Below, piece by piece: positions 7,251 through 36,303 of a stretch of 64,000 bases of DNA. Both the position numbers and the translations under genes were made by a program. Each line of letters starts with the position of its first letter. Position 1 is the first letter of the stretch. The DNA is taken from the NCBI GenBank assembly GCA_965226235.1, contig OZ245335.1, forward strand, positions 1,580,427-1,644,426, in the 5' to 3' direction. The stretch is from Candidatus Oxydemutatoraceae bacterium. Its GTDB lineage: Bacteria; Pseudomonadota; Gammaproteobacteria; Poriferisulfidales; Oxydemutatoraceae. The notes beneath the pieces were generated by a model that ran no database searches, had not been told where the DNA came from, and saw only the letters and a list, made by a program, of their open reading frames with translations.

Positions 7251-7744
7251 GAGCAGCAGCTCCTCCTCGTATATGGGACAAACAGACACGCTTCGGGAGC
7301 ACGCGCCCGATGCGAAGGATTTCACCCACCGCAGGGGATGCCGCCACCGCCCACTGAGTGAACGAGACAGGGCCGTCAACCGGACGAAGTCGAAAGTCAG
7401 GGCCAGGGTGGAACATCCCTTCCTGGTCCTCAAGCAGATCTTTGGCTTCACGAAAGTCCGTTACCGAGGATTGGAGAAGAACGCCACCCGGCTGCTTGTG
7501 GCCTGCGGGTTGGTAAATCTGTATCTGGCACGCCGCCGGTTGTTGTGCGCCACGTAGGATGGGTGCGCCTGAAATCCACCGATTGCGCCAAGAATCACGA
7601 AAAGACCGACAAAACGGGCCAACAAAGGTCGTAAAATCAGCCTGACTTCAGCGCGATCCTGCACTTTCCAACCCGGTGTTCCCCAGTGTTCCATCAAATC
7701 AGGGAAATTGTGTGCCAACGTCGATTGATCAGACTTTCCCTAGC
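7231..7744 (+). mobile_element. IS5-family 3' fragment (transposase C-terminal ~100 aa plus right end); 5'-truncated at junction with the IS481 fragment
   Basis: …VEHPFLVLKQIFGFTKVRYRGLEKNATRLLVACGLVNLYLARRRLL*. Nearly identical to 9166-9925 in inverted orientation. End GGGAAAGTCTGATCAATCGACGTTG. Confidence 0.7.
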
Positions 7745-7759
7745 TGATACGATAAATGA

Positions 7760-9109
7760 ATGGTCCAAGAACCAGAAACCCAGGCACAGTACGGCGCAGA
7801 TTCACGAACGGAGCAAGTGTATTTCACCGTGTGCATGCCGGAGCACGTGGGAATGGCAGACCATCTGAACAGTTACAAAATCTTCAGAAAATTAGGCCTG
7901 TCACTGGGGTACGCCTACTGCCACACACGGTTGACATCGACGCGCCATTTGCTGCCAAATTCCCCTCCCAGATGGATCGGAAAAGTTCGCTTTTTCGAAA
8001 AAGCATGGTATTGGCTATCTGCAAGGCTTGGTAAAGTCATCTCTCGGACCATCTCTCGGACCATCTCCCAGGAGATATACGATTTCCTGGGGCTAAATCA
8101 ATACTTCGCCTCGGATAAAACTTCTCCGGACGCAAGCAGGTTCCCGAAAAAATCATGTTGCCATATAACTTTGTCCGACCAGCTTCTGCAGGAAAACAAC
8201 ATTTCCTCTTACAAAGCGTTGGAGCGTCACATAAAAAACCTCGTCTCCCAAAGAAAAAAGCCCGGCTTTCCTTTGTTGCTTGTCTTGCAAAGAAGTATTC
8301 CCTTAGAGGAGGTTTCCAGGATCCTGCACACCATTCCCGACCCCACAGACCCGTTGGACTTTCGCGCGGCCTATTTTCAGCGGCAAAAAAAACATCCCGT
8401 GCAATCGGGGTTCGCACGCGGGCGCCTGAAAATACTTGCGCACCTGCGTCTGGGTGACCGAGGCGTTGCCTATACGCCTTGGGGAACTTGGATATATAAC
8501 CCGCCAAGATTATACCGGTGGCGGCAATGCCCGAGCGAAAACGATTTTTGGCAAGTCACAGCCACTGATTTCTATCAATTCATGCAGAAGTTGCTTGAAC
8601 ACTTTCCTCCCGACACGACTGACGCACAGATTTTCTCCGACGGGTTCGAGCACACAATCAAGGGCATATGCAGACGGAATTTGATCGTCCCCCCTCTTGC
8701 CTGGACAGAATCCAGGCTTCTGGAGAAAAGCCTGAAATGCCAGCAGCGTTTGCTTGTGTCGCAACTCAAAAGCCTGCCGAACAGCACTTGCTTTATCGGA
8801 GAAAAAAAGAGTCAGCTTTTCAAACTCGTCCATGCGGCAGTCGAAGCCGACCTCTTCATCGCCGCCTTTCCGGGACAGAGTCATTTGCTCACATGTCTGG
8901 CGGATTTTTACAGAGATCGGACGAATATGCCTGTTGTGTTGTTGCTACACAAGCTATCCAGAGTAAAAAACACCAAAAGCATCAACATGGCCAACAATGT
9001 AATGAAGCGGCTTTGTCACATTTTTCCTGAAGGAATACCTGGAATAAACTTTGTCGATATCGACGCGTCCGACTTCCCTGGCCTGACCCGGCAAATACTG
9101 CACCAGTAG
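7760..9109 (+). CDS. hypothetical protein (449 aa), lower-GC orphan ORF; N-terminus/start uncertain
   Basis: Long ORF exactly filling the gap between the two inward-facing IS5 ends. No recognisable motif; ISRTISRTIS repeat near N-terminus. Confidence 0.45.
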   Translation: MVQEPETQAQYGADSRTEQVYFTVCMPEHVGMADHLNSYKIFRKLGLSLGYAYCHTRLTSTRHLLPNSPPRWIGKVRFFEKAWYWLSARLGKVISRTISRTISQEIYDFLGLNQYFASDKTSPDASRFPKKSCCHITLSDQLLQENNISSYKALERHIKNLVSQRKKPGFPLLLVLQRSIPLEEVSRILHTIPDPTDPLDFRAAYFQRQKKHPVQSGFARGRLKILAHLRLGDRGVAYTPWGTWIYNPPRLYRWRQCPSENDFWQVTATDFYQFMQKLLEHFPPDTTDAQIFSDGFEHTIKGICRRNLIVPPLAWTESRLLEKSLKCQQRLLVSQLKSLPNSTCFIGEKKSQLFKLVHAAVEADLFIAAFPGQSHLLTCLADFYRDRTNMPVVLLLHKLSRVKNTKSINMANNVMKRLCHIFPEGIPGINFVDIDASDFPGLTRQILHQ

Positions 9110-9165
9110 AAGTCGGCAGAAGAGACAACCGATCGCAATTGACCCCTTTACCTGTTCCCACATTT

Positions 9166-9925
9166 CAGGGAAAGTCTGATCAATCGACGTTGACACACAA
9201 TTCCCCTGATTTGATGGAACACTGGGGAACACCGGGTTGGAAAGCGCAGGATCGCGCTGAAGTCAGGCTGATTTTACGACCTTTGTTGGCCTGTTTTGTC
9301 GGTCTTTTCGTGATTCCGGGCACAATCGGTGGATTTCAGGCGCACCAATCCTACGTGGCGCACAACAACCGGCGGCGTGCCAGATACAGATTTACCAACC
9401 CGCAGGCCACAAGCAGCCGGGTGGCGTTCTTCTCCAATCCTCGGTAACGAACTTTCGTGAAGCCAAAGATCTGCTTGAGGACCAGGAAGGGATGTTCCAC
9501 CCTGGCCCTGACTTTCGACTTCGTCCGGTTGACGGCCCTGTCCCGTTCACTCAGCGGGCGGTGGCGGCATCCCCTGCGGTGGGTGCAATCCTTTGCATTG
9601 GGCGCGTGCTTGCGAAGCGTGTCTGTTTGTCCCATATAGGCCGAATCACCCCATACCCGGGTTTCACCACCGTGCAGCAACTCACCGAGTACCTGGCTGT
9701 CATGTACATTCGCCGCTGTGGCAACCGCCGAATGAATCAGCTTGCTGTGGCTGTCCACACCGATATGTCCCTTCATGCCGAAATACCACTGGTTGCCTTT
9801 GCGAACCTGACGCATTTCCGGGTCATGGGACTTGTCCTTGTTCTTCGTCGAAGCGGGTGCGGAAATGATCGTGGCCTCCACGATGGTGCCGGTATTCACC
9901 TTCAGGCCATTTTCCGCTGCGGATT
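9166..9925 (-). mobile_element. IS5-family partial copy (DDE transposase lacking N-terminus), minus orientation
   Basis: ORF 9351-10028(-): …FGMKGHIGVDSHSKLIHSAVATAANVHDSQ…VEHPFLVLKQIFGF…ARRRLL. N-terminal ~40 aa replaced by an antisense IS481 sequence. Confidence 0.7.
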
Positions 9926-10190
9926 CCTCGGTGTGGTCGTTGGCCATTATAGCGGTCGAGGTAGTCCAGCAGATGCTGGTTGAATGCCCGTAGATCCTCG
10001 CCCAGAAGGTCTTCTTCATAATCAACAAAGTCTTCCTGCACAGTGCGGTTGAAACGCTCGTTGAAAGCGTTCATTTTCGGGCTTCTCGGGTAGGTATGGC
10101 AGTGGCGCCATCCTTGGCTCGGGCATAGTCGGCAAAGGCGCCCTGGAACTCGCTACCATTGTCCGTGAGTATCTGCTCGATGCGTACAGA
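9925..10190 (-). mobile_element. IS481-family internal/3' fragment (minus)
   Basis: ORF 9823-10074(-) MNAFNERFNRTVQEDFVDYEEDLLGEDLRAFNQHLLDYLDRYNGQRPHRGI… matches the complete IS481 copy. Joined to IS5 on one side and IS3 on the other. Confidence 0.65.
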
Positions 10191-10352: not shown

Positions 10353-12436
10353 TACCCCATCTTTACCAATTTCCCTGAGATTGTGGCTGGATTTTGCACG
10401 ATCGGCGGTTTTTGTGGTTGTAACCTATTGATTTTTGGTGTGTGGCGGTGGAATAGCTGATGTAGTGCCATAATATGAATTATAAGGTTGACACCTCGGC
10501 ACGTTCCCGCTACCATACTCCCCATGTTCGTCCGCCGAACCCTCACCCGCCGTACCGGCGGCCAGGACTACCACTCCCACCGCCTCGTGCACAGCGAGCG
10601 CGACGGCGCCAAGGTGCACCAGCGCACGCTGCTGAACCTCGGCAATTTCGACATCCCCAAGGCACAGTGGCCGGCACTGTGCCGGCGCATCGACGAGATC
10701 TTGAACGGTCAGGCGCCGCTGCTCGACGAGGTGCCGGGCGCCGTCGAGGACGAGGCGCAACGGATCGCCGCGCAACTGCTGGCCCGAAGCCGGGCGGGGG
10801 ACGCGGAGGCGGCGCGCGATCTGGTTACGGTGGATGTGGATACGCTTTCGTTGACGCGCCCACGCAGCGTCGGTGTCGAGCAGGTGGGGCTGTGGGCGAT
10901 CAAGCGGTTGGGTCTGGTGGAATTGTTGGCCGGGCTGGGGGTCAACGCGGCCTTGCGCATGGCGGCGCTGGGTTCGATCGTGGCGCGGTTGGCGTATCCG
11001 GCCTCGGAGCGGGCGACGCACGCCTGGCTTCGGGAGCGCAGCGCGCTGGGGGAGTTGCTCAAGGTGGACTTCGAGACCATGGGGGCTATGCAGTTGTACC
11101 GGGCATCCGATGCGCTGATCAAGCACCGCGAAGCGATCGAGGCGCATCTGTTCGATCGGGCGATAGACCTGTTCGATCTGGCGCCGACGGTGACGCTCTA
11201 CGATTTGACGAACACCTTCTACGAGGGCGAGGCGGCGGATCAGCCCAACGCGCGGCGGGGTCATTCGAAGGAGAAGCGTAGCGATTGCAAGTTGCTGACG
11301 CTGGGGCTGGGGCTGGATGCGGGCGGCTTCGTGCGGCGCTCGCGGGTGTTCGCGGGCAACGTCAAGGAAGACCGGACCCTGCAAGGTATGCTCGAGGCGC
11401 TCGGGGCGCCGCCGGGGTCGCGCGTGGTGCTCGACCGGGGCATCGCCACACAGGCGCAGATCGACTGGCTTGCCGAGCACGGTTACCGCTACATCGTGGT
11501 CAGCCGCGAGCGCCGGCGCCGGTTCGACGCCGAGGCGGCCACGGCCCATCGCACCCGCACGGGCGGCACGGTGCATCTGGAGAAGGTGGCCGATCCCGAT
11601 GGCGGCGAGGTGCGGTTGTACTGTTACTCCGAGGAACGGGCGAACAAGGAACGCGGTATCGCCGAGCTTTTTGCGGCACGCTTCGAGCGGGGTCTCAAAG
11701 CGCTCGACGAGGGGCTGTCGCGGCCGCGCACGCAGAAGAAGCCGGACAAGATCTGGCAGCGCATCGGGCGACTTAAGGAGAAAAGCCGCGGCGTCGGCCA
11801 GCACTACGACATTGAGGTCGAGGCCAACGAGACGGGCGAGCGGGCGGTGGCAGTGCGCTGGCGGAAAAAGCCCGTGACGGGCACGATGCTCACCCATCCC
11901 GGCGTCTATTGTCTGCGCAGCAACGAGATCGACTGGAGCGAGCAGCGGCTGTGGCGCACCTACACCCTGCTCACGGATCTCGAGGCGGTGTTCCGTGCCC
12001 TGAAATCCGAACTGGGCCTGCGCCCCATCCATCACCGCAAGGCGCGCCGCGCCGAGGGGCATCTGTTCATCACGGTAATCGCCTACCAACTCGTCCAGGT
12101 GATCCGCCGGCGCCTGGCCGAGCGCGGCGACGAGCCGATCCGCAGTGCGAGCTGGACGACGCTCAGGCGGATACTCGGCGGGCGCCAACGCGTGACCGCG
12201 ACGTTCAAGCGCGCCGACAGGCGCACCGTGCATGTGCGCAAGGCGACGCGTGCAGAGCCGAAACAACAGGCGATACTCGATGCCTTGGGAATTACTTTAT
12301 CGGCCGGGGGGACGCAGAAGGCGATCGTCTGAGCCGAAATCATCGGGTGCGGCGCGAATGTAGTGCCATACACGCGATTCTAACAACGTAACCCGTTGAG
12401 ATATAAAGATTTATTTTTTTTGTTGGTAAACTTGGG
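10353..12436 (+). mobile_element. IS1634-family insertion sequence (IS4 superfamily), apparently complete, very high GC (~68%)
   Basis: Single long transposase ORF. Element splits the IS3 orfB remnant between …SVGTVSGDCY and YDNALAE…. Imperfect terminal IRs share TTTACCAA. Boundaries +/-20 bp. Confidence 0.65.
10524..12332 (+). CDS. tnp: IS1634-family DDE transposase (603 aa from MFVRRTL…)
   Basis: Motifs …YDLTNTFYEGE…GHSKEKRSDCKLLTLGLGLD…YIVVSRERR… plus C-terminal …RPIHHRKARRAEGHLFITVIAYQL…, typical of IS1634/IS4 transposases. Confidence 0.75.
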   Translation: MFVRRTLTRRTGGQDYHSHRLVHSERDGAKVHQRTLLNLGNFDIPKAQWPALCRRIDEILNGQAPLLDEVPGAVEDEAQRIAAQLLARSRAGDAEAARDLVTVDVDTLSLTRPRSVGVEQVGLWAIKRLGLVELLAGLGVNAALRMAALGSIVARLAYPASERATHAWLRERSALGELLKVDFETMGAMQLYRASDALIKHREAIEAHLFDRAIDLFDLAPTVTLYDLTNTFYEGEAADQPNARRGHSKEKRSDCKLLTLGLGLDAGGFVRRSRVFAGNVKEDRTLQGMLEALGAPPGSRVVLDRGIATQAQIDWLAEHGYRYIVVSRERRRRFDAEAATAHRTRTGGTVHLEKVADPDGGEVRLYCYSEERANKERGIAELFAARFERGLKALDEGLSRPRTQKKPDKIWQRIGRLKEKSRGVGQHYDIEVEANETGERAVAVRWRKKPVTGTMLTHPGVYCLRSNEIDWSEQRLWRTYTLLTDLEAVFRALKSELGLRPIHHRKARRAEGHLFITVIAYQLVQVIRRRLAERGDEPIRSASWTTLRRILGGRQRVTATFKRADRRTVHVRKATRAEPKQQAILDALGITLSAGGTQKAIV

Positions 12437-12700
12437 TTACGACAACGCACTGGCCGAGACGATCATCGGTGTGTACAAGACGGAGGTGATCCGCCGCCGC
12501 GGTCCGTGGCATACGCTCAAGCAAGTGGAACATGCGACCCTGGAATGGGTGGACTGGTTCAACAACCGCAGATTGTTGGGGGCAATTGGCCACGTGTCTC
12601 TTGAGGAGGTGGAAATGGTGTATTGTTACCACTTGACTCAAACAAAACAGTCTCTGGAACTCTTGGGGCGGTTTAAACGCACGGGTTTGCCCCTCTGTGA
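12437..12700 (+). pseudogene. IS3-family orfB fragment, 3' piece (C-terminus of integrase)
   Basis: …YDNALAETIIGVYKTEVIRRRGPWHTLKQVEHATLEWVDWFNNRRLLGAIGHVSLEEVE…, the canonical IS3 OrfB C-terminus. Confidence 0.6.
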
Positions 12701-12719
12701 GCTTCAGCCTTTATTACCG

Positions 12720-13697
12720 ATGCTTGTTAGCAGAGATTTTATTTTTATCCATGTGCCCAAAACCGGCGGCATTTTTATGCGCAACGTGCTTCATGTTCTG
12801 TCAGAAAAAAGCCCGCATTTGTTCCTTCTCGGCTCCAGGCGTGCACCTCCAAACAGATGGCTTGCGTTTCTGCGTAAGTATTACCGCCCCACGCTAAGAA
12901 ACTGGGATTATTCTCTGCACAGGTTGTTCGTAAAAAATCTTTACTGGAGGAAAGATAAGGCAAGCCTGCTGCTGATTCGTTGGCGAGGCGCTAGGCGAAG
13001 GAAATCTGGTTTCAATGTGCAGCATGCGAATTGCGAGTGTATACCCGAAGTTCACCAGCACAAACTGGTACTTTCCATAAAGCGGGATCCGCTTGCATAC
13101 CATGTGTCCTGCTACTGCTTCCGGGGTGGACGCGTATTTTGGTGGAGAAAACGGTACTGGGAACAACAATACCAACGAGCGGTGTCCAAGAGAGAAGTAT
13201 GCAGGATCAATTCCAGGCAAGAGGGCGTTCCTGACTTCGGTGAATTCGTAAGGTTTTTCAACGAAAAGTTCCCTCGCATGCATTTTTTCAGGCATAAGCG
13301 TTGCCGCCTGCCCTCGTCCATCGGGTTTATGAGTTACATTTATATCTGGTATTTTTTCAGGGAGCCTATGAAGGTGCTTTCCAAAACCGATGTGCAACTG
13401 GCCGAGTATTTTGAGAGTCAGCGTTACCGGCAGGACATGTACCGGGTGCACTTTCTTCGCACGGAGCATCTGAACGCCGACATGCACGATTTTCTTTTAA
13501 GCAGAGGTTTTGACCGGGAGGTGCTCAGGTTCATTCCAGCACAGGGAAAAGTCAACGTGAGCGTGGCAACGGACCCTGCAGCCTGGTTTACCTCGGAGCT
13601 CATCGACTACGTTAAGGAGAAGAACCGGATTTACTATCGATATTTCTGGTGTGACGGCAGCGCGGAATCGACGGGAGCGCTCGATGGTCGCGTCTGA
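12720..13697 (+). CDS. sulfotransferase-family protein, paralog 1 (325 aa)
   Basis: 5'-PSB-like motif FIFIHVPKTGG and 3'-PB-like motif KRDPLAYHVS. Trp/Arg/Tyr-rich. C-terminal ~200 aa ~80-90% identical to paralogs 2 and 3. Confidence 0.6.
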   Translation: MLVSRDFIFIHVPKTGGIFMRNVLHVLSEKSPHLFLLGSRRAPPNRWLAFLRKYYRPTLRNWDYSLHRLFVKNLYWRKDKASLLLIRWRGARRRKSGFNVQHANCECIPEVHQHKLVLSIKRDPLAYHVSCYCFRGGRVFWWRKRYWEQQYQRAVSKREVCRINSRQEGVPDFGEFVRFFNEKFPRMHFFRHKRCRLPSSIGFMSYIYIWYFFREPMKVLSKTDVQLAEYFESQRYRQDMYRVHFLRTEHLNADMHDFLLSRGFDREVLRFIPAQGKVNVSVATDPAAWFTSELIDYVKEKNRIYYRYFWCDGSAESTGALDGRV

Positions 13698-13733
13698 CCG
13701 ACCTGTCCCGCGTTTACTTTGGTCATAGCGCCG

Positions 13734-14705
13734 ATGTGGGTGAGTAAGGATTTTGTTTTTATCCATGTGCCCAAAACCGGCGGCAGTTTTGTTCGTTCTA
13801 TTCTGTCAAAAGAAAGCCTGCCTTTGCTCCGTATAAGACATTACCATGGCGGTTTATTGAGCAAGTGGCTGCTAATAAAGGGTGGCGTTTTTTTTACGCA
13901 AGGTGCGGGCAAAAACCTGTACTACCGGAGGAAAAATAAATGGAGTTGGGTGCCGATTCGTTGGGTGGAGGCTGTGCGCAAAGTCCACCGCCGTTTAGTT
14001 TTTATGTGGTCTCCGAGAGGTCCGATGATTCATGCGAATTGCGAGCGTATACCGGAAGCACACCAGCACAAACCGGTGCTTTCCATAAAGCGGGATCCGC
14101 TTGCATACCATGTGTCCTGCTACTGTTATGAGGATGGCACCGTGTTTGGGTGGAAACAAGGGTACTGGCACCAGCAGTATCAGCAAGCGGCGTCCAGGAA
14201 AGAGAAAAACAGGATCAATTCCAGGCAGGAGGAGGTTCCTGACTTCGGTGAATTCGTAAGGTTTTTCAACGAAGAGTCGCCCCGCATGCATTTTTTCAGG
14301 CATGAGCACTGCCGCCTGCCCTCGTCCATCGGGTTTATGAGTTACATTTATATCTGGTATTTTTTCAGGGAGCCTATGAAGGTGCTTTCCAAAACCGATG
14401 CACAACTGGCCGAGTATTTTAAGAGTCAGCGTTACCGGCAGGACATGTACCGGGTGCACTTTCTTCGCACGGAGCATCTGAACGCCGACATGCACGATTT
14501 TCTTTTGAGCGGAGGTTTTGACCGGGAGGTGCTCAGGTCCATTCCAGCGCTGGAAAAAACTAACGTGAGCGTTAAAAAGGATCCCGAGACTTGGTTCACC
14601 CCGGGGCTCATCGACTATATCGAAGAGAAGAACTGGATTTACTATCGGTATTTCTGGCGTGACGACAGCGCGGAATCGACGGGAGCGCTAGATGGTCGCG
14701 TCTGA
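13734..14705 (+). CDS. sulfotransferase-family protein, paralog 2 (ATG at 13734; upstream TTG possible)
   Basis: MWVSKDFVFIHVPKTGGSF…KRDPLAYHVSCYCY… Divergent N-terminal third, conserved C-terminal two-thirds. Confidence 0.6.
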   Translation: MWVSKDFVFIHVPKTGGSFVRSILSKESLPLLRIRHYHGGLLSKWLLIKGGVFFTQGAGKNLYYRRKNKWSWVPIRWVEAVRKVHRRLVFMWSPRGPMIHANCERIPEAHQHKPVLSIKRDPLAYHVSCYCYEDGTVFGWKQGYWHQQYQQAASRKEKNRINSRQEEVPDFGEFVRFFNEESPRMHFFRHEHCRLPSSIGFMSYIYIWYFFREPMKVLSKTDAQLAEYFKSQRYRQDMYRVHFLRTEHLNADMHDFLLSGGFDREVLRSIPALEKTNVSVKKDPETWFTPGLIDYIEEKNWIYYRYFWRDDSAESTGALDGRV

Positions 14706-14741
14706 CCGGCCTGTCCCGCGTTTACTTTGGTCATAGCGCCG

Positions 14742-15761
14742 ATGTGGGTGAGTAAGGATTTTATTTTTATCCATGTGCCCAAAACCGGCGGCAATTTTGT
14801 TCGCGCCGTTCTCGTTCTGTTAGAAAAAAGCCTGCATTTGCCCCGTATCCGCCCTGCTTCTGGCAAGTGGCGTGTTTTTCTAAGTGGGTGGTACTGGCGT
14901 ACCGTGCTGGAAATGTGGCATGCCACGCCGACAGGCTGGCGTGTTTCTCTGCACAGGTCGTTGGCAAAAAGCCTGTACCGGAGAAAAGGCAAAGCGAGCC
15001 TGCTACTGATTCGTTGGTTGTGGACCTTGCGTAGGACGTTCGATCGTCTGTATCCGCAACGGTGGTCTCCGAGGGATCTGATGCTTCATGCGAACTGCGA
15101 GTGTATACCGGAAGCGCACCAGCACAAACCGGTGCTTTCCATAAAGCGGGATCCGCTTGCATACCATGTGTCCTGCTACTGTTATCGGGATGGCGCCGTG
15201 TTTTGGTGGAGAAAACGGTATTGGCACCAACAGTATCAGCAAGCGGCGTCCAGGAAAGAGGAAGACAGGATCAATTCCAGGCAGGAGGAGATTCCTGACT
15301 TCGGTGAATTCGTAAGGTTTTTCAACGAAGAGTTGCCCCGCATGCATTTTTTCAGGCATAAGCGCTGCCGTCTGCCCTCGTCCATCGGGTTTATGAGTTA
15401 CATTTATATCTGGTATTTTTTCAGGGAGCCTATGAAGGTGCTTTCCAAAACCGATGTGCAACTGGCCGAGTATTTTGAGAGTCAGCGTTACCGGCAGGAC
15501 ATGTGCCGGGTACACTTTCTTCGCACGGGGCATCTGAATGCCGATCTGCACGATTTTCTTTTGAGCGGAGGTTTTGACCGGGAGGTGCTCAGGTTCATTC
15601 CAGCGCAGGAAAAAGCTAACGTGAGCGTTAAAAAGGATCCCGAGACTTGGTTCACCCCGGGGCTCATCGACTATATCGAAGAGAAGAACTGGATTTACTA
15701 TCGGTATTTCTGGCGTGACGACAGCGCGGGATCGACGGAGACGCTAGATGGTCGCGTCTGA
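14742..15761 (+). CDS. sulfotransferase-family protein, paralog 3
   Basis: MWVSKDFIFIHVPKTGGNF…KRDPLAYHVSCYCY… Same repeat unit as paralog 2. Confidence 0.6.
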   Translation: MWVSKDFIFIHVPKTGGNFVRAVLVLLEKSLHLPRIRPASGKWRVFLSGWYWRTVLEMWHATPTGWRVSLHRSLAKSLYRRKGKASLLLIRWLWTLRRTFDRLYPQRWSPRDLMLHANCECIPEAHQHKPVLSIKRDPLAYHVSCYCYRDGAVFWWRKRYWHQQYQQAASRKEEDRINSRQEEIPDFGEFVRFFNEELPRMHFFRHKRCRLPSSIGFMSYIYIWYFFREPMKVLSKTDVQLAEYFESQRYRQDMCRVHFLRTGHLNADLHDFLLSGGFDREVLRFIPAQEKANVSVKKDPETWFTPGLIDYIEEKNWIYYRYFWRDDSAGSTETLDGRV

Positions 15762-15797
15762 CCGGCCTGTCCCGCGTTTACTTTGGTCATAGCGCCG

Positions 15798-15990
15798 ATG
15801 TGGGTGAGTAAGGATTTTGTTTTTATCCATGTGCCCAAAACCGGCGGCAATTTTGTTCGCGCCGTTCTGTCAGAAAAAAGCCTGCATTTGCCCCGTATCC
15901 GCCCCTCGCGTCCTGTTTCTGGCAAGTGGCGTGTTTCTCTGCACAGGTCGTTGGCAAAAAGCCTGTACCGGAGAAAAGGCAAAGCGAGCC

Positions 15991-15995
<5 letters not shown>
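15798..15995 (+). pseudogene. sulfotransferase paralog 4, 5' remnant (~65 codons), truncated at the wrbA-block breakpoint
   Basis: MWVSKDFVFIHVPKTGGNFVRAVLSEKSLHLPRIRP…SLAKSLYRRKGKASL then unrelated sequence. Lacks a 23-codon stretch present in paralog 3. Confidence 0.6.
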
Positions 15996-17348
<1,353 letters not shown>

Positions 17349-17356
17349 TCAGCCTG

Positions 17357-17531
17357 GCCACGTGGGCGTGGATCAAGGTTTGTCCGTTGATAGCCATGCC
17401 GCCGCGGCTACAAGCCTTGGTGTCGCTCGGCTACAAGGCTGCCGATGCGCGCAGGGTGATCCGGCAGGCGGCAAAATCGGATGACTCGGTGGAAGACATG
17501 ATCAAAGCCGCGCTGAAAGACAGTCTGTAAC
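17357..17531 (+). pseudogene. ruvA: ruvA 3' remnant (C-terminal domain III only)
   Basis: …RLQALVSLGYKAADARRVIRQAAKSDDSVEDMIKAALKDSL* resembles the RuvA C-terminal domain. No upstream part; a full ruvA starts at 63782. Confidence 0.55.
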
Positions 17532-17573
17532 ATCCGATATGGCCACAAGCGATGGATTTTGACGAGCCAGGCA

Positions 17574-17842
17574 ATGACTGAATCCAACTCTCTGCTGAAC
17601 GCACGCCGCACCCAGGGCGAAATCGGTGCGGACATGCGCGTTCGCCCCGAGCAACTGGATCAATATATCGGCCAGGAGACGGTGTGCGAGCAGATGCGCG
17701 TGTTCATCGAAGCAGCGCGCGGGCGCCAGGTGACCGCGCTCACCTGGCGTTATTTCAATCTTGACCCACCGGACGACCACGCTGCGCCGTCTCCGCCGAG
17801 CCTCTTCTGAAACCGGGTCACCCAGGCGATCTTGCGCCCGGC
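17574..17842 (+). pseudogene. ruvB: ruvB 5' remnant, degraded and truncated by IS481
   Basis: MTESNSLLNARRTQGEIGADMRVRPEQLDQYIGQETVCEQMRVFIEAARGRQ… resembles the RuvB N-terminus. Downstream Walker-A region is frameshifted before the IS481 left end at 17843. Confidence 0.55.
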
Positions 17843-18852
17843 AGGCACGGGATGTATGAGTTCAGAAACAAATGGGAGGCGATGATGGGAACCAATGCCC
17901 AACAGAAACCGGACGCGCCAACATTCTGGAACAATCACGGATTAAATGCCACCCGGGATGCTTTCAAGGTCGGCCGCTCGACGCTGTACCGCTGGCGCAA
18001 AGCTCACCACGAAAGTGGGTTGAGTAGGCTGCATGATCGTAGCAGAGCTCCGCACCAGCGCCGCCGGCGCAACTGGCCACCGGCGCTGTGCGCTGAAATA
18101 CGCCGGCTACGCAACGTTTTTCCGAACCTGGGCAAGGACAAGCTGCACGTACTGTTGCGCCCCTGGTGCGAACGTCACGAGCTGGCCTGCCCCAGTGTGA
18201 GCACCATCGAGCGCTTGATCGGCGATACACCGGACAAGATGCGTCTTGTGCCGACGCGCTTGACGCCGAAAGGCAAGGCCAAATCATTGCGCCGCCAACG
18301 TTTCAAGCAACGGCTGGGCAAAGGCTTCTGCGCGGATTACCCAGGTCACTGCGTCGCATTCGACACAGTAGTGCGCTTCATCGGGCGCACCCGCCGCTAC
18401 CTGCTCACGGCCACCGACCACGCCAGCCGCTTTGCGCTGGCGATCGCGGTTTCCCGTTACGACAGCCAGCACGCCGCACGCTTCGCGGCATTGGTCAAAA
18501 CCCTGTTTCCGGGGCGCATCGAGCAGATACTCACGGACAATGGTAGCGAGTTCCAGGGCGCCTTTGCCGACTATGCCCGAGCGCAGGGATGGCGCCACTG
18601 CCATACCTACCCGAGAAGCCCGAAAATGAACGCTTTCAACGAGCGTTTCAACCGCACTGTGCAGGAAGACTTTGTTGATTATGAAGAAGACCTTCTGGCC
18701 GAGGATCTACGGGCGTTCAACCAGCATCTGCTGGACTACCTCGACTGCTATAATGGCCAACGACCACACCGAGGAATCGACAACCGCACACCCTGTCAAA
18801 TGCTTGCTCAACACTGGCCTCATTTGTCCCAATATGTGGTGGACCCATACAG
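17843..18852 (+). mobile_element. IS481-family insertion sequence, apparently complete (~1.0 kb)
   Basis: Terminal IRs TGTATGAGTTCAGAAACAAATGGGA … TCCCAATATGTGGTGGACCCATACAG. Single transposase ORF. Reference copy for at least 6 fragments elsewhere in the window. Confidence 0.75.
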
Positions 18853-18865
18853 GTGCTTGCCATAG
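17882..18865 (+). CDS. tnp: IS481-family DDE transposase/integrase (stop lies 13 nt beyond the right IR)
   Basis: HTH region (…VGRSTLYRWRKAHHESGLSRLHDRSRAPHQ), rve core (…LLTATDHASRFALAIAV…DNGSEFQ…) and C-terminus …LDCYNGQRPHRGIDNRTP. Confidence 0.75.
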   Translation: MMGTNAQQKPDAPTFWNNHGLNATRDAFKVGRSTLYRWRKAHHESGLSRLHDRSRAPHQRRRRNWPPALCAEIRRLRNVFPNLGKDKLHVLLRPWCERHELACPSVSTIERLIGDTPDKMRLVPTRLTPKGKAKSLRRQRFKQRLGKGFCADYPGHCVAFDTVVRFIGRTRRYLLTATDHASRFALAIAVSRYDSQHAARFAALVKTLFPGRIEQILTDNGSEFQGAFADYARAQGWRHCHTYPRSPKMNAFNERFNRTVQEDFVDYEEDLLAEDLRAFNQHLLDYLDCYNGQRPHRGIDNRTPCQMLAQHWPHLSQYVVDPYRCLP

Positions 18866-19128: not shown

Positions 19129-20487
19129 ATGCATATGGAATCGATGAGTGTTCCAAAGCACGCCAAGTATCTGGTAGTGGGCGCGGGGGTGCATGGGCTC
19201 AGTACCGCCTATCATCTTGCGACACAGTTCAAGGCTCGCGGTACCGGAAGCGGACGGGATATCCTCGTGCTGGATAAAAACGACATTGGGGCAGGTGCTT
19301 CAGGGATTGCGTGTGGCGTGATTCGCAACAACTATTTCCAGCCAGCCATGCGGGAGCTCATGCAACACAGCGTGGAAGTGTGGGAAAGCGACCTGGAGGC
19401 TTTTCACTATCACCCCGTAGGCTATATTCAGGCGGCCCCCGAAGCGATGCGCGCAGACACCGCCAGCATTTCCAGACAACAAAATGAAATTGGATATGAA
19501 TCCGTATACATCGAAGGCGAAAAGGAATGCGGTAAATACATGCGAAATATTTTCAGCGACTGGCAGGCCAAAAACATTTCCGTGGTCCTGCATGAAAAAC
19601 GCGGCGGTTATGCGAATAACCTGCCTAGCATGAAAGGCCTTGCCGCAAAAGCCGAGCACGAAGGCGTGCGTATTTTGCCGAACACCCAGGTGACGGGGTT
19701 TCGAAGGCATTCCGCAAGCGACGCAATCGAAGGGGTAGAGACGGACCAAGGCACCATTTCATGCGAGTATGTGATTATCGCTGCAGGGCCATGGATAAAA
19801 ACTATCTGGGAAATGCTTGAATTACCTAAGAATATTACAGTCAAGAGCTTAAACGGCACAACCCGTAACAACATGCCGATGTGGGTGTTCTGGTCGTTGC
19901 AGGAAGGCACATTGGGTGTCGATCCCGCCATGCAAAAAATGAATAACGGTGATTTTCCGCCCGTTATACACGTGGATACGGACGCGCCACTGTATTCAGA
20001 TCGCAACGGCAAGTTGATCACAAACAAGCTATGGGGCATTTACTACAAGCCTGATTTCAATTTTGGCGGCGTACAGGGAGGAACCGTACCTTTCAAAATA
20101 GATACGAACCCTGATGAAGTGAACGTGGACCCATACGGGCCTGATTCGCCTGACTATATCGTTGATGAAAGCTTCGCGGAGATGTGGGTTTCAGCCTTGG
20201 CGCATTGTCAAAAAAGATTTGAAGGCACGCTTCCAAGTTATAAAAATGAGGCTTCCGGTGGGATTGGCGCGTTCACGCCGGACAGTTTTCCCGTCTTCGA
20301 TGTTTTTTGTGACAACTGCTACATCATTGCCGACTCCAATCACGGGTACAAAATGATTGGCGTCGGGAAACTGGTTGCCGAGGAAATTGTCGGCGAGCGG
20401 CAAAAATTGCTCGAGCCATTCAGATTTTCCCGCTATGCGGAAGGGAAACTGCACCCGGTATCGAACAGCCCCTACCCGTGGAGCTAG
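19129..20487 (+). CDS. FAD-dependent oxidoreductase, sarcosine-oxidase-beta/DAO family paralog (452 aa)
   Basis: N-terminal dinucleotide-binding motif KYLVVGAGVHGLSTAYHLA, the same signature as the soxB-like gene at 31814. C-terminal extension. First gene of the gmaS-mgsABC block. Confidence 0.65.
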   Translation: MHMESMSVPKHAKYLVVGAGVHGLSTAYHLATQFKARGTGSGRDILVLDKNDIGAGASGIACGVIRNNYFQPAMRELMQHSVEVWESDLEAFHYHPVGYIQAAPEAMRADTASISRQQNEIGYESVYIEGEKECGKYMRNIFSDWQAKNISVVLHEKRGGYANNLPSMKGLAAKAEHEGVRILPNTQVTGFRRHSASDAIEGVETDQGTISCEYVIIAAGPWIKTIWEMLELPKNITVKSLNGTTRNNMPMWVFWSLQEGTLGVDPAMQKMNNGDFPPVIHVDTDAPLYSDRNGKLITNKLWGIYYKPDFNFGGVQGGTVPFKIDTNPDEVNVDPYGPDSPDYIVDESFAEMWVSALAHCQKRFEGTLPSYKNEASGGIGAFTPDSFPVFDVFCDNCYIIADSNHGYKMIGVGKLVAEEIVGERQKLLEPFRFSRYAEGKLHPVSNSPYPWS

Positions 20488-20533
20488 GAAGTCTAGAAAC
20501 AATAAAGCACGCAAATCTCAAGGAGCGAAACAA

Positions 20534-22009
20534 ATGACTACAGATCTGGAAAGACATGTCAATGCAGAGGGACGTAGCGAACTGGTCAAGCAGGTTCGCG
20601 GCATGATCGAGGCCCTGGGGGTCAGATACGTATACTTTCAGTTCGTATCAGTCACCGGTCGTATCGTGGGCAAGGGCATCCCTGCGGATCATTGGGAACG
20701 TCTTGCGGAGAGAGGGTTCCAGCTCGTCTATGGCTCAACGGCCAACCTGTACACCGACCGCCACGGCCACTATATCGGGTATGGCCCGGAAGCATCCGAA
20801 CTGGTGGGGATTCCCGACCCGGAGACCTTCTGCCAGTTGCCGTGGGATAAGCGTCTTGCGCGCGTGTTTTGCACCTGTTTTCGCAACCGCGAAGAAAAAG
20901 AAAACCCTGGAGCACACCTGAGCTCGGACTGCCGCGGCAACCTGCGCATCATCCATGGCGAATTCAAGGCCAGGCACGATGGACTGCACATGCGCATGGG
21001 TACCGAGCCTGAGATGATGTGGCTGAAGAAAGACGAAAGTGGAAATCTCGATGGCGGAGTTACCAAGCCGAACTGCTATCACATTGACCAGTTCGAGGAG
21101 TTGCGTCCAGCTTTCATGAAGGTAATCGAGTATGCCGAGCAAATGGGTTACGACATGATTCAAGGTGACCACGAGGATGCGCCCGGTCAGCTTGAATTGA
21201 ACTGGATGTTCGATGACGTGCTGCGCAACGCGGATCGCCTGACCACCTACAGGCAGATCTGCGCGCAAGTCGCACGCGAACAAAATCTGGTGGCCTGCTT
21301 CATGACAAAGCCGTTCATGGGAGTTTCCGCATCGGGATGCCATCACAACATGTCTTTGTGGAGAGGAGGAAGGTCCGTGGTGAATGATATGCACCAGGAT
21401 CCTATGGGAGGTATGGAGGATGTGTTCAGTTACCTGCAGGATGGTGAAAACACCTTTATGCCCGTCCCCGAAATCGATGAACGCAAACCTGGACCAATCG
21501 GACTTCGGTGCATTGGCGGCGTGAGGGAGCATTTACGGGCGCTGACAGCCATTGGTTCCTGCACCGTGAATTCTTACCGGCGGCTGTGGGATACTGGTTT
21601 CTGGGCGCCTGTTTTCGCAGACTGGGGGTTCCAGAACCGCACTTGCGGTTTGCGCGTTTCCGCTCCGGGGCGGTTCGAATATCGTTCCGTCGATTCCATG
21701 GTTAATCCATATTTAATGGGCGCCGCCTTGCTGAAAGCCTTTGACGATGGCATTATCAGGAACATAGACCCTGGCGAGCCCGAAGAGCGCAATATCTATG
21801 AGGCTATAAAAGAAGGGAAGGGCGTGAAAAAGTTGCCAATGTCCCTGGGTGAAGCCTTGGAGGCGCTGGAACAGGACGAAGTAATCAAGTCGGCCATGCC
21901 CGGTGAAATGTACAAGGTGTTTACTCACTACAAAAATGACGAGTGGGAACGATTCAACCACACGGTTACCAATTGGGACGTAGACACCTATTTGGATTAT
22001 CTGCCGTAA
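20534..22009 (+). CDS. gmaS: glutamine synthetase family protein (type III-like), candidate gamma-glutamylmethylamide synthetase
   Basis: ATG at 20534 with AAGGAG RBS (the tool's ORF begins upstream at 20357). Catalytic-domain motifs (…MGTEPEMMWL…NSYRRL…). Adjacent to mgsABC-like genes. Confidence 0.65.
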   Translation: MTTDLERHVNAEGRSELVKQVRGMIEALGVRYVYFQFVSVTGRIVGKGIPADHWERLAERGFQLVYGSTANLYTDRHGHYIGYGPEASELVGIPDPETFCQLPWDKRLARVFCTCFRNREEKENPGAHLSSDCRGNLRIIHGEFKARHDGLHMRMGTEPEMMWLKKDESGNLDGGVTKPNCYHIDQFEELRPAFMKVIEYAEQMGYDMIQGDHEDAPGQLELNWMFDDVLRNADRLTTYRQICAQVAREQNLVACFMTKPFMGVSASGCHHNMSLWRGGRSVVNDMHQDPMGGMEDVFSYLQDGENTFMPVPEIDERKPGPIGLRCIGGVREHLRALTAIGSCTVNSYRRLWDTGFWAPVFADWGFQNRTCGLRVSAPGRFEYRSVDSMVNPYLMGAALLKAFDDGIIRNIDPGEPEERNIYEAIKEGKGVKKLPMSLGEALEALEQDEVIKSAMPGEMYKVFTHYKNDEWERFNHTVTNWDVDTYLDYLP

Positions 22010-22032
22010 GGTATAACAGGAGGATCAGTTTA

Positions 22033-22971
22033 ATGTGTGGAATTGCCGGAGTGATACATAGAGGCTCGCCTGCCAACATTGGGCAGAAGATGACCTCCAT
22101 GTTGCATGCCTTAAAACACCGCGGCCCTGACTCGGCGGGTTTTGCGCTGTATGGAAACGGCGAGCAGAAAAGCAGGAACATCATGCGCTTCAAGGCTGCG
22201 GAGCGCGATGAACTGAAATCCGGTTTCAATATCCATCATCTGATCGAAGAACGCAAGACCGCAGTCGAAACACGCCTGCGGGAACTTGGTGCCGAGATTA
22301 GATCGATGGATCAGGCAACCGAGTACGCCTACCGGTGCGTGTTCGGTTACGAAGGCGACATGCGCAAGCTGGCCGATTACATTGAAGATGTCGAAGGGAT
22401 TGAAATTCTTTCACTCGGCAATTCACTCGAGCTTATCAAGGATCTGGGCAATGCCCGGGAAGTGGCGTCAGAATACAACCTGGATTCGTTTCAAGGCACT
22501 CACGCGATCGGGCATACGCGGATGGCTACGGAATCGGATGTTGATATTCGCTCGGCGCATCCGTATTGGGCCTATCCATATAACGATATTGCAGTCGTAC
22601 ACAACGGCCAACTGACCAACTACTGGAATTCACGGCGCGCGCTGGAGCACAAGGGGCATCGCTTCAAGTCGAACTGCGACTCCGAGTTAATCGCCGTTTA
22701 CATTGCGGACAAACTCGAGGATGGCACCTCTCTGAAGGATACTATGCACAATTCCGTGGAAGAGTTCGATGGCGTTTTCACCTACCTGGTGGCAACGCAC
22801 GATTCCCTGGGGATGGCCAAAGACACCATGGCCGCAAAGCCCTTGGTACTGTATGAGAGCGATGATTATATTGCGATGGCATCCGAGGAAGTGGCCATTC
22901 GCAGTATTTTCCCGCACGAGATCGACACGACGGACCCCTACGAGGGCGAGGTGCGCGTATGGCACAGCTAA
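22033..22971 (+). CDS. mgsA: class-II glutamine amidotransferase domain protein (glutamate synthase N-terminal domain-like), mgsA-like
   Basis: Starts MCGIAGV… (Ntn Cys1 after Met) with AGGAGG RBS. About 313 aa. Confidence 0.7.
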   Translation: MCGIAGVIHRGSPANIGQKMTSMLHALKHRGPDSAGFALYGNGEQKSRNIMRFKAAERDELKSGFNIHHLIEERKTAVETRLRELGAEIRSMDQATEYAYRCVFGYEGDMRKLADYIEDVEGIEILSLGNSLELIKDLGNAREVASEYNLDSFQGTHAIGHTRMATESDVDIRSAHPYWAYPYNDIAVVHNGQLTNYWNSRRALEHKGHRFKSNCDSELIAVYIADKLEDGTSLKDTMHNSVEEFDGVFTYLVATHDSLGMAKDTMAAKPLVLYESDDYIAMASEEVAIRSIFPHEIDTTDPYEGEVRVWHS

Positions 22972-23798
22972 AACAGTCCTCCCATGAAATGGGCATGCAC
23001 ACCGAGCAGCTTGCCGGACGCAGTCGACGGATATTTTTCTCTCCCACGGAAGAAGAAAACTTTACGAATCCAACTGCCTGCGAGGTGGATTTTGACCGAA
23101 AAACCGAGTTTGATGTTGCCAACATGGAGATCTCTGCCATCAATATCAAGATCAGGGAACTTATGCAGGAGGGATACGGCACGATCACGGTCAAAAATCC
23201 TGGCGCAAAACACTCTCTTGCCGTGGGAATTCTCAACCGCCTGAACTTGGTTTTCGAGGGCAGCCTCGGTTATTTCGGGTGCGGGCTGATCGATGGCCCC
23301 AACGTACATGTCAAAGGTCGTGTCGGATGGTCCTGCGCGGAGAACATGATGTCGGGAACGGTCGTGATTGAAAAAAACGCGGGCTCGACCTTTGGAGCCG
23401 CGCTCCGAGGCGGAGACCTGGTATGCAGAGGCGATGTTGGTAGCCGCACGGGGATCAACCAGAAAGGTGGCACTATCATCGTGGGTGGAAACGTTGGTAT
23501 GAACACGGGATTCATGATGCAACGCGGTCGCATGATATTGCTTGGCGACTCAGGCCCCAACCTGGGCGACTCGATGTACGACGGCATGATTTTCATCGCC
23601 GGAACAATCCAGAGCCTTGGTATCGACGCGGTGGAAGGGGAATTAACGGAAACCGACAAGCAATGGCTCACCAACAAGCTTTCGATCTACGGCATGGAAG
23701 TGCCACGTAGCGTGGAAAATCTCACCAAGATCGTATCCGGGAAACAGCTCTGGAATTATGATAATCTCGAGCCAACCGAGAAAAAGCTGATCCTTTAA
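22959..23798 (+). CDS. mgsB: GXGXG-domain protein (glutamate synthase alpha-subunit C-terminal domain-like), mgsB-like
   Basis: Repeated G-x-G-x-G beta-helix motifs (…KGRVGWSCAENMMSGTVVIEKNAG…RGDVGSRTGINQKGGTIIVGGNVG…). 13-nt overlap with the upstream gene. Confidence 0.7.
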   Translation: MAQLKQSSHEMGMHTEQLAGRSRRIFFSPTEEENFTNPTACEVDFDRKTEFDVANMEISAINIKIRELMQEGYGTITVKNPGAKHSLAVGILNRLNLVFEGSLGYFGCGLIDGPNVHVKGRVGWSCAENMMSGTVVIEKNAGSTFGAALRGGDLVCRGDVGSRTGINQKGGTIIVGGNVGMNTGFMMQRGRMILLGDSGPNLGDSMYDGMIFIAGTIQSLGIDAVEGELTETDKQWLTNKLSIYGMEVPRSVENLTKIVSGKQLWNYDNLEPTEKKLIL

Positions 23799-23820
23799 TT
23801 GAATACACGAAGAGGTTCCC

Positions 23821-25212
23821 ATGGCTACACCAGATAAACAGATCGAGCTTCCAAAAGTACTGGCCGAGACAGAACCCGAGCTCGAGAGGAACCATCATAA
23901 CTTGGGATCGAGCTTTATGTTTACGCCGGATGTCATTAATGACATTCACATTAAAGCCGAGCTTGGACGTTATCGCATGCGCGGATTTTCGCTGTTCAAG
24001 AAAATTCCGACATGGGATGATCTGACATTCCTGCCGGGCACGCTTACCCGGTTCGTGATTGAGGGCTACCGGGAAAAATGCCTGACCAAAACAGTCATCG
24101 GACCGCGCGCCAAACGGCCACTGGAGCTGGATATCCCGGTTTATATCACCGGCATGAGCTTCGGCGCGCTTAGCTACGAGGCGAAAACGGCGCTGGCGCG
24201 TGGCGCGACCATGGCAGGCTCGGCAACCTGTTCAGGCGAAGGCGGCATGATTCCAGACGAGCGCAGATATTCAGAGAAATGGTACTATCAGTGCATTCAA
24301 TCGCGTTACGGATTCAATCCGCATCATCTGCGACTGGCCGACGCAGTAGAGTTCTTTATCGGCCAAGGATGCAAGGTTGGTATGGGAGGTCACCTGATGG
24401 GGCAAAAGGTGACCGATCAGGTCGCCGAGATGCGTTCATTGCCGGCGGGCATTGATCAGCGTTCCCCGGCCCGGCATCCGGACTGGCTCGGCCCGGATGA
24501 TCTGGCATTGAAAATTCAGGAAATTCGAGAGGCCACCAACTGGGAAATACCGATCCAGTTGAAACTGGGGGCCGCGCGTGTCTATGATGACGTGCGCATG
24601 GCCGTTAAAACAGACCCGGACTCCATCTATATAGACGGGATGGAAGGTGGTACCGGTGCCGGCCCGCACCTGGCGACGGAAGATACGGGAGTTCCCGGGA
24701 TTGCCGCAATCCGTCAGGCACGGAAGGCAATTGATGATTTGGGCAAAACCGGGGAAATCTCACTGGTATACGCCGGAGGCATTCGTAACGGCAGCGATGT
24801 CGCAAAAGCGCTGGCTCTGGGCGCGGACGCCATTGCGATCGGACACGCTTCCCTGATCGCGCTGAACTGCAACAAGGATATTCCGGAAGCAGACTTCCCC
24901 CGCGAAGTGGGTGTGCGCCCCGGGCATTGCTATCACTGCCACACAGGCCGCTGCCCGGTAGGCGTCGCAACTCAGGACCCCGAACTGCGTAAGCGACTGA
25001 ATCCCGACGAAGCAGCCGAGCGCGTGTATAACTTCCTGCACACCCTGACGATTGAAGCTCAGTTGTTTGCACGGGCCTGTGCGAAGACAAACATACATTC
25101 GCTGGAACCCGAAGACCTGGCCGCCCTGACGATGGAAGCTTCCGCAATGGCACAGGTGCCCCTGGCAGGAACACAGCACACCGTTGGGCGCCCGGACATG
25201 ACGAGATACTGA
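23821..25212 (+). CDS. mgsC: glutamate synthase FMN-binding domain protein (GltB central domain-like), mgsC-like
   Basis: 463 aa TIM-barrel FMN domain (…YITGMSFGALS…IDGMEGGTGAGP…YAGGIRNGSDVAKALALGADAIAIG) with 4-Cys cluster CYHCHTGRCPVG. Confidence 0.7.
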   Translation: MATPDKQIELPKVLAETEPELERNHHNLGSSFMFTPDVINDIHIKAELGRYRMRGFSLFKKIPTWDDLTFLPGTLTRFVIEGYREKCLTKTVIGPRAKRPLELDIPVYITGMSFGALSYEAKTALARGATMAGSATCSGEGGMIPDERRYSEKWYYQCIQSRYGFNPHHLRLADAVEFFIGQGCKVGMGGHLMGQKVTDQVAEMRSLPAGIDQRSPARHPDWLGPDDLALKIQEIREATNWEIPIQLKLGAARVYDDVRMAVKTDPDSIYIDGMEGGTGAGPHLATEDTGVPGIAAIRQARKAIDDLGKTGEISLVYAGGIRNGSDVAKALALGADAIAIGHASLIALNCNKDIPEADFPREVGVRPGHCYHCHTGRCPVGVATQDPELRKRLNPDEAAERVYNFLHTLTIEAQLFARACAKTNIHSLEPEDLAALTMEASAMAQVPLAGTQHTVGRPDMTRY

Positions 25213-30144: not shown

Positions 30145-30806
30145 CTTGTTCCTCCTGGAAAATACTACGCATCTATGGATGGAGTGTTACCTGTTTTGCT
30201 GCTGAAAACAAATCCGAACGACTCTCTCGATCGATATCTGCTCATTACCGGAAAAGTTGCGAGCCTGATGTAATTCTAATCGATTAGCCGGGAAGTACCG
30301 CATTTTCCTCACAACGCTCCTCAACCGCACGTCATGAAACGAAGCCGCTCCAGGCGCAAAATAACCCGCCCCGGGAATCCGGGCGGGGAAAATCATAAAG
30401 AGCCGGGTGAAACAGTTAGCCAGGAAATTTCACCGATGGGGTAGAAAGAGGCTGCCTCTTATGGCATAACAGTTGTTTAAACAAGCAGTTAGGTCAACCG
30501 ACCAAGGAGGCAACCTTGAAGGCACAGTGTACTTTCACCGCTGGGCAGACGATCCGTGACAGGTCGATTCGATGGCGGCCGGATCAGTTCGGACGGAGGT
30601 AGACGGGGGGAGTACCGTTGCGCGAGGTCGACAGGCGCATCGGCCTGACGGCACGGGCGATCGCGACACCAGATGCCCGGATACCGGCTACAGACACGTA
30701 ATCAGCTGTGTTCAACGGGAAACTGCATCGCAATCATGAATCGGTGACGGATGCGGGTTAGAATCAAGCTTGGTTCAATCGGATGGCTGCACTGATATAT
30801 GCCATG

Positions 30807-31559: not shown

Positions 31560-31813
31560 GGGTCGTGCCCAATCAGAAACTGGTTGCCGACTGATATAGC
31601 TTTATGGTTCTACGATGCTTTTATCCACCAGCCATTTCCCGCTTGGGGGCTAACCCGGTATCATCCGTGCGTCACTCCGGAGACCAGTTCGCCTTGCCAC
31701 ATCGAAAACCAGGAATGTCGAAGTCGGGGTTTATTACCCGATCTGTAATACGCCCAGCGGGGAATCGAGCGACCGAAAGCAATCCGGTAGCCTGTCAATA
31801 AGAGGAACTTTCC

Positions 31814-33055: not shown

Positions 33056-33065
33056 GGACACACGC

Positions 33066-36299: not shown

Positions 36300-36303
36300 T
36301 CGA

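Follow-up and report, generated by a model that had tools for sequence, protein, structure and literature searches.

A tandem array of putative sulfotransferase genes, probably shaped by recombination, in a sponge-associated gammaproteobacterium

Introduction

The Sulfotransfer_2 family (PF03567) includes the heparan sulfate 2-O- and 6-O-sulfotransferases and bacterial proteins known as 'sulfotransferase family 2', and in solved sulfotransferases the stretch between the helix of the 5'-phosphosulfate-binding (5'-PSB) loop and the catalytic histidine contributes to the acceptor site. Bacterial loci can hold several such genes, for example, the xss (synechan) cluster of Synechocystis, which is associated with a sulfated extracellular polysaccharide and whose sulfotransferases belong to PF00685, PF03567 and PF13469 (PMC8205485). 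Here we analyze a 64-kb stretch of contig OZ245335.1 (the window) from the 2.1-Mb chromosome of a Candidatus Oxydemutatoraceae bacterium, a relative of Candidatus Porisulfidus, whose members are sponge symbionts (PMC12988363). Between positions 12720 and ~16000 the window carries a tandem array of related genes, and we favor, with somewhat more than even confidence, the view that it is a lineage-specific amplification of a gene for a cytoplasmic sulfotransferase dependent on 3'-phosphoadenosine 5'-phosphosulfate (PAPS), shaped by recombination.

Results

Three intact genes and a 5' stub are arranged head to tail

A preliminary description made from the sequence had proposed three full genes and a stub in strict head-to-tail order, a layout on which the listing of open reading frames (ORFs), protein alignment, DNA alignment and self-BLAST all agree. 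Every unit lies on the + strand: copy 1 (12720-13697; 325 aa), the most divergent unit, copy 2 (13734-14705; 323 aa, or 328 aa from a TTG at 13719), copy 3 (14742-15761; 339 aa, or 344 aa from a TTG), all three intact, and the 5' stub of a further unit, which runs from 15798 to ~15990-16000, where homology ends, and retains ~67 codons with a 20-codon net deletion. The units are 81-87% identical to each other over 1.1-1.9 kb, far above chance. They are joined by a junction (13698-13733, + strand, repeated at 14706-14741 and 15762-15797) whose sequence is the same or almost the same from unit to unit and which leaves 36 nt between the stop codon and the ATG, or 21 nt to the upstream TTG, the spacing first noted; copy 1 is without it on its upstream side. 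The encoded proteins (323-344 aa) have the Trp/Arg/Tyr-rich composition originally remarked on (W 3-5%, R 9-12%, Y 5-6%), and the motifs HVPKTGG and KRDPLAYHVS recur in each full copy. Copy 3 contains the direct repeat GKWRV…TGWRV in its variable segment (see below), and relative to copy 3 the stub lacks 20 codons, which fits the suggested removal of 23 codons between the two repeats.

The junction contains TTTGGTCATA (window 13709-13733), which is found 9-18 nt 5' of the start codon both at the array junctions and in the single-copy ortholog of another species (L001, ~9976-10000), although synonymous divergence (dS) in the coding region is ~0.8; the motif may have a conserved role in translation or regulation. 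A promoter/terminator scan gave no signal above shuffle expectation and, given this result together with the 36-nt spacing, the units are probably co-transcribed. We dismissed the long antisense ORFs of each unit (166-197 aa) because the + strand frame is conserved in homologs at 40-65% identity. Horizontal transfer of the array was likewise rejected, as its GC content at third codon positions (GC3, 0.58-0.62) equals that of neighboring housekeeping genes. The low overall GC of the array reflects its amino-acid composition, and its high-GC flanks are an insertion sequence (IS) and a block containing a wrbA-like gene.

The array proteins very probably belong to the PAPS-sulfotransferase superfamily

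A word-indexed homology search recovered just nine clusters among 5.8 billion, and an exhaustive family-profile search returned 1545 relatives at E<=1e-3, 637 of them at E<=1e-10; most of the relatives are full length, at 250-290 aa. The link to known enzymes is transitive: the close subfamily aligns with the distant family (hhalign probability 100%, E = 4e-59, 260 columns), and the distant-family profile in turn matches solved sulfotransferases in the PDB (E = 4.4e-8). Weak Pfam matches are present among 53 sampled family members, to PF03567 in 29 (E<=0.01) and to PF00685 in 19, and an NCBIfam scan of the same 53 gave zero matches. One protein from a distant relative (L092) scores 25.6 bits on PF03567 (cutoff 22); the window proteins fall below the gathering threshold of this model, with no match (E>1).

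The motifs of these enzymes can be placed on the array proteins. Directly after the first beta-strand, all four units carry FIHVPKTGG(I/S/N)F, which aligns to PKSGTT of SULT1C3/SULT2A1, the 5'-PSB loop, and in which P13, K14 and G16 are conserved in at least 90% of the 53 sequences. The histidine of HANCE (H100) is invariant among them and aligns to the catalytic histidine (K-T-H-L) of the cytosolic enzymes, and KRDPLAYHVS aligns to the 3'-phosphate-binding (3'-PB) motif RNPKDCLVS, with R120 and P122 invariant and S128 at least 90% conserved. K14, H100, R120 and S128 are invariant or almost so across the set, and the preliminary reading of the two motifs as PAPS-type is borne out by these alignments with solved enzymes. 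A usable AlphaFold2 (AF2) model, with copy 2 as the query, was obtained only from the 53-sequence alignment; the 9-sequence alignment gave a predicted local distance difference test score (pLDDT) of 42. The window proteins are predicted to adopt the sulfotransferase alpha/beta fold, and the top structural neighbors in Foldseek are all PAPS sulfotransferases. We conclude that the array proteins are very probably members of the PAPS-sulfotransferase superfamily, that by profile comparison they would form an uncurated, very divergent branch nearest to the carbohydrate-sulfotransferase type of PF03567, and that they presumably use PAPS.

Gene conversion and unit loss are apparent among near-identical strains

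The array was compared with those of L003 and L004, two contigs (9x and 11x) from one European Nucleotide Archive (ENA) sample that are 99.2-99.8% identical to the window by BLAST. In L004, units 1-3 are followed by a full-length fourth unit, almost the same as copy 3 but with a 2-bp insertion, and then by the stub seen in the window. In L003, they are followed by a mosaic fourth unit, successively copy-3-like, copy-2-like and copy-3-like; this unit also carries a 1-bp insertion and lacks part of its 3' end. The array thus measures 3.2 units in the window and ~3.8 and 4.2 units in the other strains, the kind of length variation that the preliminary description had proposed to look for. The window stub, then called copy 4, is the ortholog of the stub that makes up unit five of L004, and the fourth unit of L003 and L004 is absent from the window; the alignments therefore indicate that the window strain has lost a whole unit. 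Although they contain many indels, copies 1-3 keep intact ORFs in each of the three strains.

Along the units, identity comes in patches, and the copy nearest to a given one changes between windows of 75 nt: copy 1 equals copy 3 at alignment columns 676-750 and copy 2 at columns 751-825, and copies 2 and 3 are equal at columns 901-975, where copy 1 is only 75% identical. Several inter-strain polymorphisms carry the allele of a different copy. Judged from these alignments, the mosaicism and neighbor switching are evident signatures of gene conversion.

Variation is concentrated in one segment that shows no sign of positive selection

The copies differ most in a segment between the PSB-loop helix and the catalytic histidine, in agreement with the N-terminal variability first reported: residues 25-101 in copy 1 (12792-13022, + strand), 25-99 in copy 2 (13806-14030, + strand), where model confidence is low (pLDDT ~50), and 25-115 in copy 3 (14814-15086, + strand). 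The 224 C-terminal residues are 82-89% identical between copies, much as estimated originally (~80-90% over 200 aa), and residues 1-24 are conserved as well. From residue 25 to ~100, identity drops to 29-45% over alignable positions, with many in-frame indels. The copies had been called unrelated over residues ~25-110; this is true of residues ~25-70, which cannot be aligned, but the second half of the segment (…K.LY.RK.K…IRW…) is clearly homologous between copies. That half corresponds to a semi-conserved, W/R-rich helix (…IRW.W..RR.L..L.P.W…), modeled as a long helix at low confidence. Across the wider family, too, the variable segment lacks conservation, and its first half (~45-60 residues) is absent or short in P0004, P0005, P0019 and P0020. 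The segment may serve as a lid over the acceptor, bind membranes as a helix or simply be a tolerant loop.

By Nei-Gojobori estimates, dS in the variable segment is 0.6-1.3, nonsynonymous divergence (dN) 0.44-0.60 and dN/dS 0.44-0.71, compared to a dS of 0.08-0.31 and a dN/dS of 0.25-0.62 between copies in the C-terminal part, the highest of these ratios (0.62) belonging to copies 2 and 3. Synonymous divergence is therefore several-fold higher in the variable segment than in the C-terminal part. Positive selection on the segment was rejected, since dN/dS is 0.44-0.71 and exceeds 1 in no window. Against orthologs, C-terminal dN/dS is 0.19-0.31 and, with a GC3 equal to that of neighboring genes, this argues that the gene family is native and constrained and that its amplification is recent. 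A programmed source of variation, such as a diversity-generating retroelement or an invertible or phase-variable cassette, was also considered and set aside: the Pfam-scanned ORFs of the window include neither a reverse transcriptase nor an invertase, just IS transposases, and the variation consists mostly of indels and ordinary substitutions.

The close subfamily is confined to sponge-associated genomes

COX1 of this bacterium shares 86% identity with its counterpart in Ca. Porisulfidus metagenome-assembled genomes. Close relatives of the array gene are found only in similar genomes of 1.7-2.4 Mb from the same ENA assembly series, some with dsr genes nearby, and the close subfamily counts <15 known sequences, all from sponge metagenomes. 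One or two copies are present per genome, placed among unrelated housekeeping genes, and two of the relatives, shortened by gene callers, are nevertheless intact. A fourth intact paralog, P0004, is encoded elsewhere on the same chromosome. A protein scan of genome contigs found no relative, a scan of JGI metagenomes only distant ones (23-24% identical), and a plasmid megablast matched solely the IS3 fragment described below. The subfamily thus appears native to a small clade of sponge-associated, sulfur-oxidizing Gammaproteobacteria related to Ca. Porisulfidus. Two distant family members reside in polysaccharide clusters of the Wzy or Wzm/Wzt type, together with glycosyltransferases and other sulfotransferases.

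In related symbionts, other repeated genes without Pfam matches lie near the orthologs of the array gene. L002 has five tandem 32-aa ORFs at a spacing of ~247 bp (11963-13048), and L005 (13341-17583) and L086 (9079-12733) have pairs or triplets of ORFs of 284-369 aa.

Insertion sequences and segmental duplications flank the array

As first outlined, the array is wedged between IS debris on the left and a wrbA-like block on the right. The left flank contains a complete IS (10355-12436, + strand, GC ~67%) with a 614-aa DDE_Tnp_1 transposase ORF (10488-12332) recognized by Pfam. It is present in the window and L003 and absent from the otherwise 99.8%-identical L004, which marks it as a recent insertion that is polymorphic among the strains. 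Next to it, Pfam detects the C-terminal fragment of an IS3-family integrase core (rve_2/rve_3; 12396-12600, + strand), whose frame enters copy 1 without a stop and yields the 425-433 aa ORF called in the public annotation (P0003). The 425-aa 'integrase fusion' P0003 is most likely an artefact of this in-frame fragment. Identical translations place the window on the 2.1-Mb contig that encodes P0003, P0012 and P0017. On the right, the array ends at the wrbA-like (FMN_red) block (15988-17358, - strand), an inverted segmental duplicate of 58293-59799 with 90-98% identity. The junction of stub and block shows ~14 bp of microhomology, and the right end of the array, truncated by the block, arose by joining to a copy of this 1.4-kb sequence.

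Each duplicate contains a gene for a wrbA-like FMN reductase as well as a small coiled-coil/transmembrane ORF. In the array-proximal duplicate, a 90-aa ORF (16947-17219, + strand) has two 21-bp (7-codon) tandem duplications (16969-17011 and 17025-17067), encoding FEQFDNRL and QGQRDLE twice each, and a C-terminal hydrophobic helix; its paralog near 59.3-59.8 kb has a different length (549 vs 507 bp aligned), a hint that the number of repeats varies. Farther left, a 472-bp inverted repeat (7270-7741 and 9167-9638, 96.6% identical) flanks a 449-aa ORF (7760-9109) that has zero Pfam matches and is also present in L004. The right arm of the repeat overlaps with the gene for an IS5-like DDE transposase (9351-10028), and the whole (7270-9638) looks like a composite transposon with a cargo or transposase ORF. 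To the right of the wrbA-like block, an 83-aa ORF (17559-17810, + strand) resembles the RuvB N-terminus, with a weak RuvB_N match for its L003/L004 equivalent; this probable gene remnant adjoins a gene for an IS481-type integrase (17852-18865). Beyond the IS481-like gene, L004 has Glycos_transf_2 and GtrA genes (15288-16675), whereas the window (19129 onward) and L003 have DAO and glutamine synthetase (GS)-like genes, a difference that indicates IS-associated rearrangement between co-resident strains.

The remaining window contains a cytochrome oxidase, IS elements, methylated-amine/sarcosine catabolism, electron-transfer flavoprotein (ETF), a Liv-type ABC transporter and aspS. The genes for methylated-amine catabolism (19129-25212, 29035-37035 and 41658-49325) comprise a GS-like/GATase/GXGXG/Glu_synthase set resembling the N-methylglutamate pathway, an ammonium transporter, GcvT, heterotetrameric sarcosine-oxidase-like genes, ETF alpha/beta and a trimethylamine-dehydrogenase-like old yellow enzyme (OYE)/Pyr_redox protein, a complement that fits a symbiont using host-derived methylamines.

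Discussion

We favor, as somewhat the better bet, a lineage-specific tandem amplification of a cytoplasmic, PAPS-dependent sulfotransferase gene that was shaped by recombination. Unequal crossing-over would generate the copy-number differences between near-identical strains, and gene conversion would homogenize the 3' two-thirds of the genes, the junction and the first ~24 codons. The indel-prone insertion between the 5'-PSB helix and the catalytic histidine (residues ~25-70, extending to ~100) would have become too diverged for conversion, and the distal units would be decaying. The contrast between the variable segment and the C-terminal part is explained at least as well by gene conversion as by diversifying selection, because nearest neighbors switch along the units and the L003 fourth unit is a mosaic of copies 3 and 2. 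The pattern is accounted for by the ordinary dynamics of tandem arrays in a symbiont genome prone to recombination. The acceptor is most likely a glycan or a lipid-linked sugar, by analogy with the distant family members in polysaccharide clusters, and a specificity difference between copies is unproven.

Several observations weigh against this interpretation. The Pfam and NCBIfam scans of all copies gave no match at E<=1, so that the sulfotransferase assignment of the preliminary description, upheld by the transitive profile and fold evidence, failed in the Pfam search proposed for it. Sequence searches of the PDB with one copy or with close-subfamily profiles (phmmer/hmmsearch) found nothing, and the Foldseek scores are weak (E 0.03, TM 0.25-0.3). 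The array and five close relatives lie among unrelated housekeeping genes, outside glycan clusters. The Pfam-scanned ORFs of the 64-kb window include no APS kinase, ATP sulfurylase or other PAPS-synthesis gene and no glycan gene, consistent with the earlier remark that partner biosynthetic genes are absent nearby. Clear Shine-Dalgarno sequences are not evident before the array start codons. Finally, the sister strains have frameshifts or truncations in units 4 and 5, and the array may be eroding overall.

This last observation leads to the likeliest alternative, which we regard as possible though rather improbable: the array could be a neutral by-product of recombination, a redundant amplification in an IS-ridden, eroding genome, with the variable segment a tolerant loop under relaxed constraint, the copies equal in activity or losing it and the array shrinking toward loss. 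The damaged distal units and the differing array lengths of 99%-identical strains agree with it, as do the dN/dS values of copies 2 and 3 in the C-terminal part (0.62) and of the variable segment (0.44-0.71), the low model confidence of that segment and its shortness or absence in four relatives, and the density of IS elements, segmental duplications and gene remnants in the region. It is harder to reconcile with the frames of the three copies, which in each of the three strains stay open across an indel-rich stretch of 75-91 codons, with their fully intact catalytic motifs, with the long-term purifying selection seen in orthologs (dN/dS 0.19-0.31) and with the intact paralog P0004 kept elsewhere on the chromosome.

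The preliminary description had instead seen a substrate-specificity diversification cassette, in which the hypervariable segment would be an acceptor-binding lid, each copy would sulfate a different acceptor or position, and selection would resist homogenization. The location of the segment between the PSB-loop helix and the catalytic histidine, the sharp boundaries between converted and unconverted DNA and the preserved reading frames speak for it, but dN/dS rises above 1 in no window, the high dS of the segment favors an old segment, or one that conversion has passed by, over faster amino-acid change, the segment is unconserved family-wide, and its model is unreliable, so that contact with the active site is only putative. 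With distal units that are pseudogenes in the sister strains as well, we consider adaptive diversification unlikely and do not retain the cassette. A recombination-driven variant, in which units with different lid insertions are shuffled so that co-resident strains vary the sulfation of a surface glycan or glycolipid read by the sponge, is a long shot; if true, it would be a sulfation analogue of O-antigen or antigenic variation, and PAPS would be cheap, as adenosine 5'-phosphosulfate (APS) is a catabolic intermediate of sulfur oxidation. That the proteins keep the fold and motifs but use another nucleotide-linked donor, or have a binding or regulatory role, is very improbable: no direct family match, the extra W/R-rich segments (~40-80 additional residues in the subfamily) and the PAPS genes not seen in the window would suit it, but the PSB lysine, the catalytic histidine and the 3'-PB arginine and serine are all conserved and each top structural neighbor is a PAPS sulfotransferase.

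The assignment gives a function class to a protein family without any curated model and affects ~1500 clusters at 50% identity. Recombination of a tandemly amplified sulfotransferase gene, the reading we prefer, would also make the locus a clear example, on a small scale, of concerted evolution with polymorphic copy number in a host-restricted symbiont. If a surface glycan is sulfated, the array would bear, speculatively, on how sponge symbionts present host-like sulfated sugars.

Compared to described systems, the array proteins share with PF03567 the N-terminal strand, the (H/I)PKTGG-type 5'-PSB loop, the catalytic histidine and the R-x-P-x5-S 3'-PB motif, but differ in a 45-60-residue hypervariable insertion, in a distinctive, highly conserved, W/Y/F-rich C-terminal half (IGFMSYIYIWYFF, IYYRYFW) and in being encoded by orphan genes outside glycan clusters. 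The cytosolic sulfotransferases (PF00685; SULT1/SULT2 and plant SOTs) provide the top Foldseek matches of the copy 2 model and a profile match (E 4e-8 to 1e-6) that spans the PSB loop, the histidine and the 3'-PB motif; however, sequence alignment with them is limited to the N-terminal ~120 residues, the TM scores are 0.25-0.3, and their C-terminal RKGxxGDWK motif was not identified in the window proteins. The xss cluster likewise has several sulfotransferase genes at one locus, and distant relatives of the window proteins occur in clusters of this kind, but its sulfotransferases come from separate subfamilies, with glycosyltransferases, Wzx/Wzy and regulators lying between them (PMC8205485), whereas the window units arose recently from one gene as tandem paralogs and have no glycan genes in their vicinity. 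The closest likeness in behavior is to tandem arrays under concerted evolution, with which the locus shares patchy identity, neighbor switching, mosaic units, copy-number polymorphism and decaying end units; it has no distinctive difference from them, and the mechanism is ordinary.

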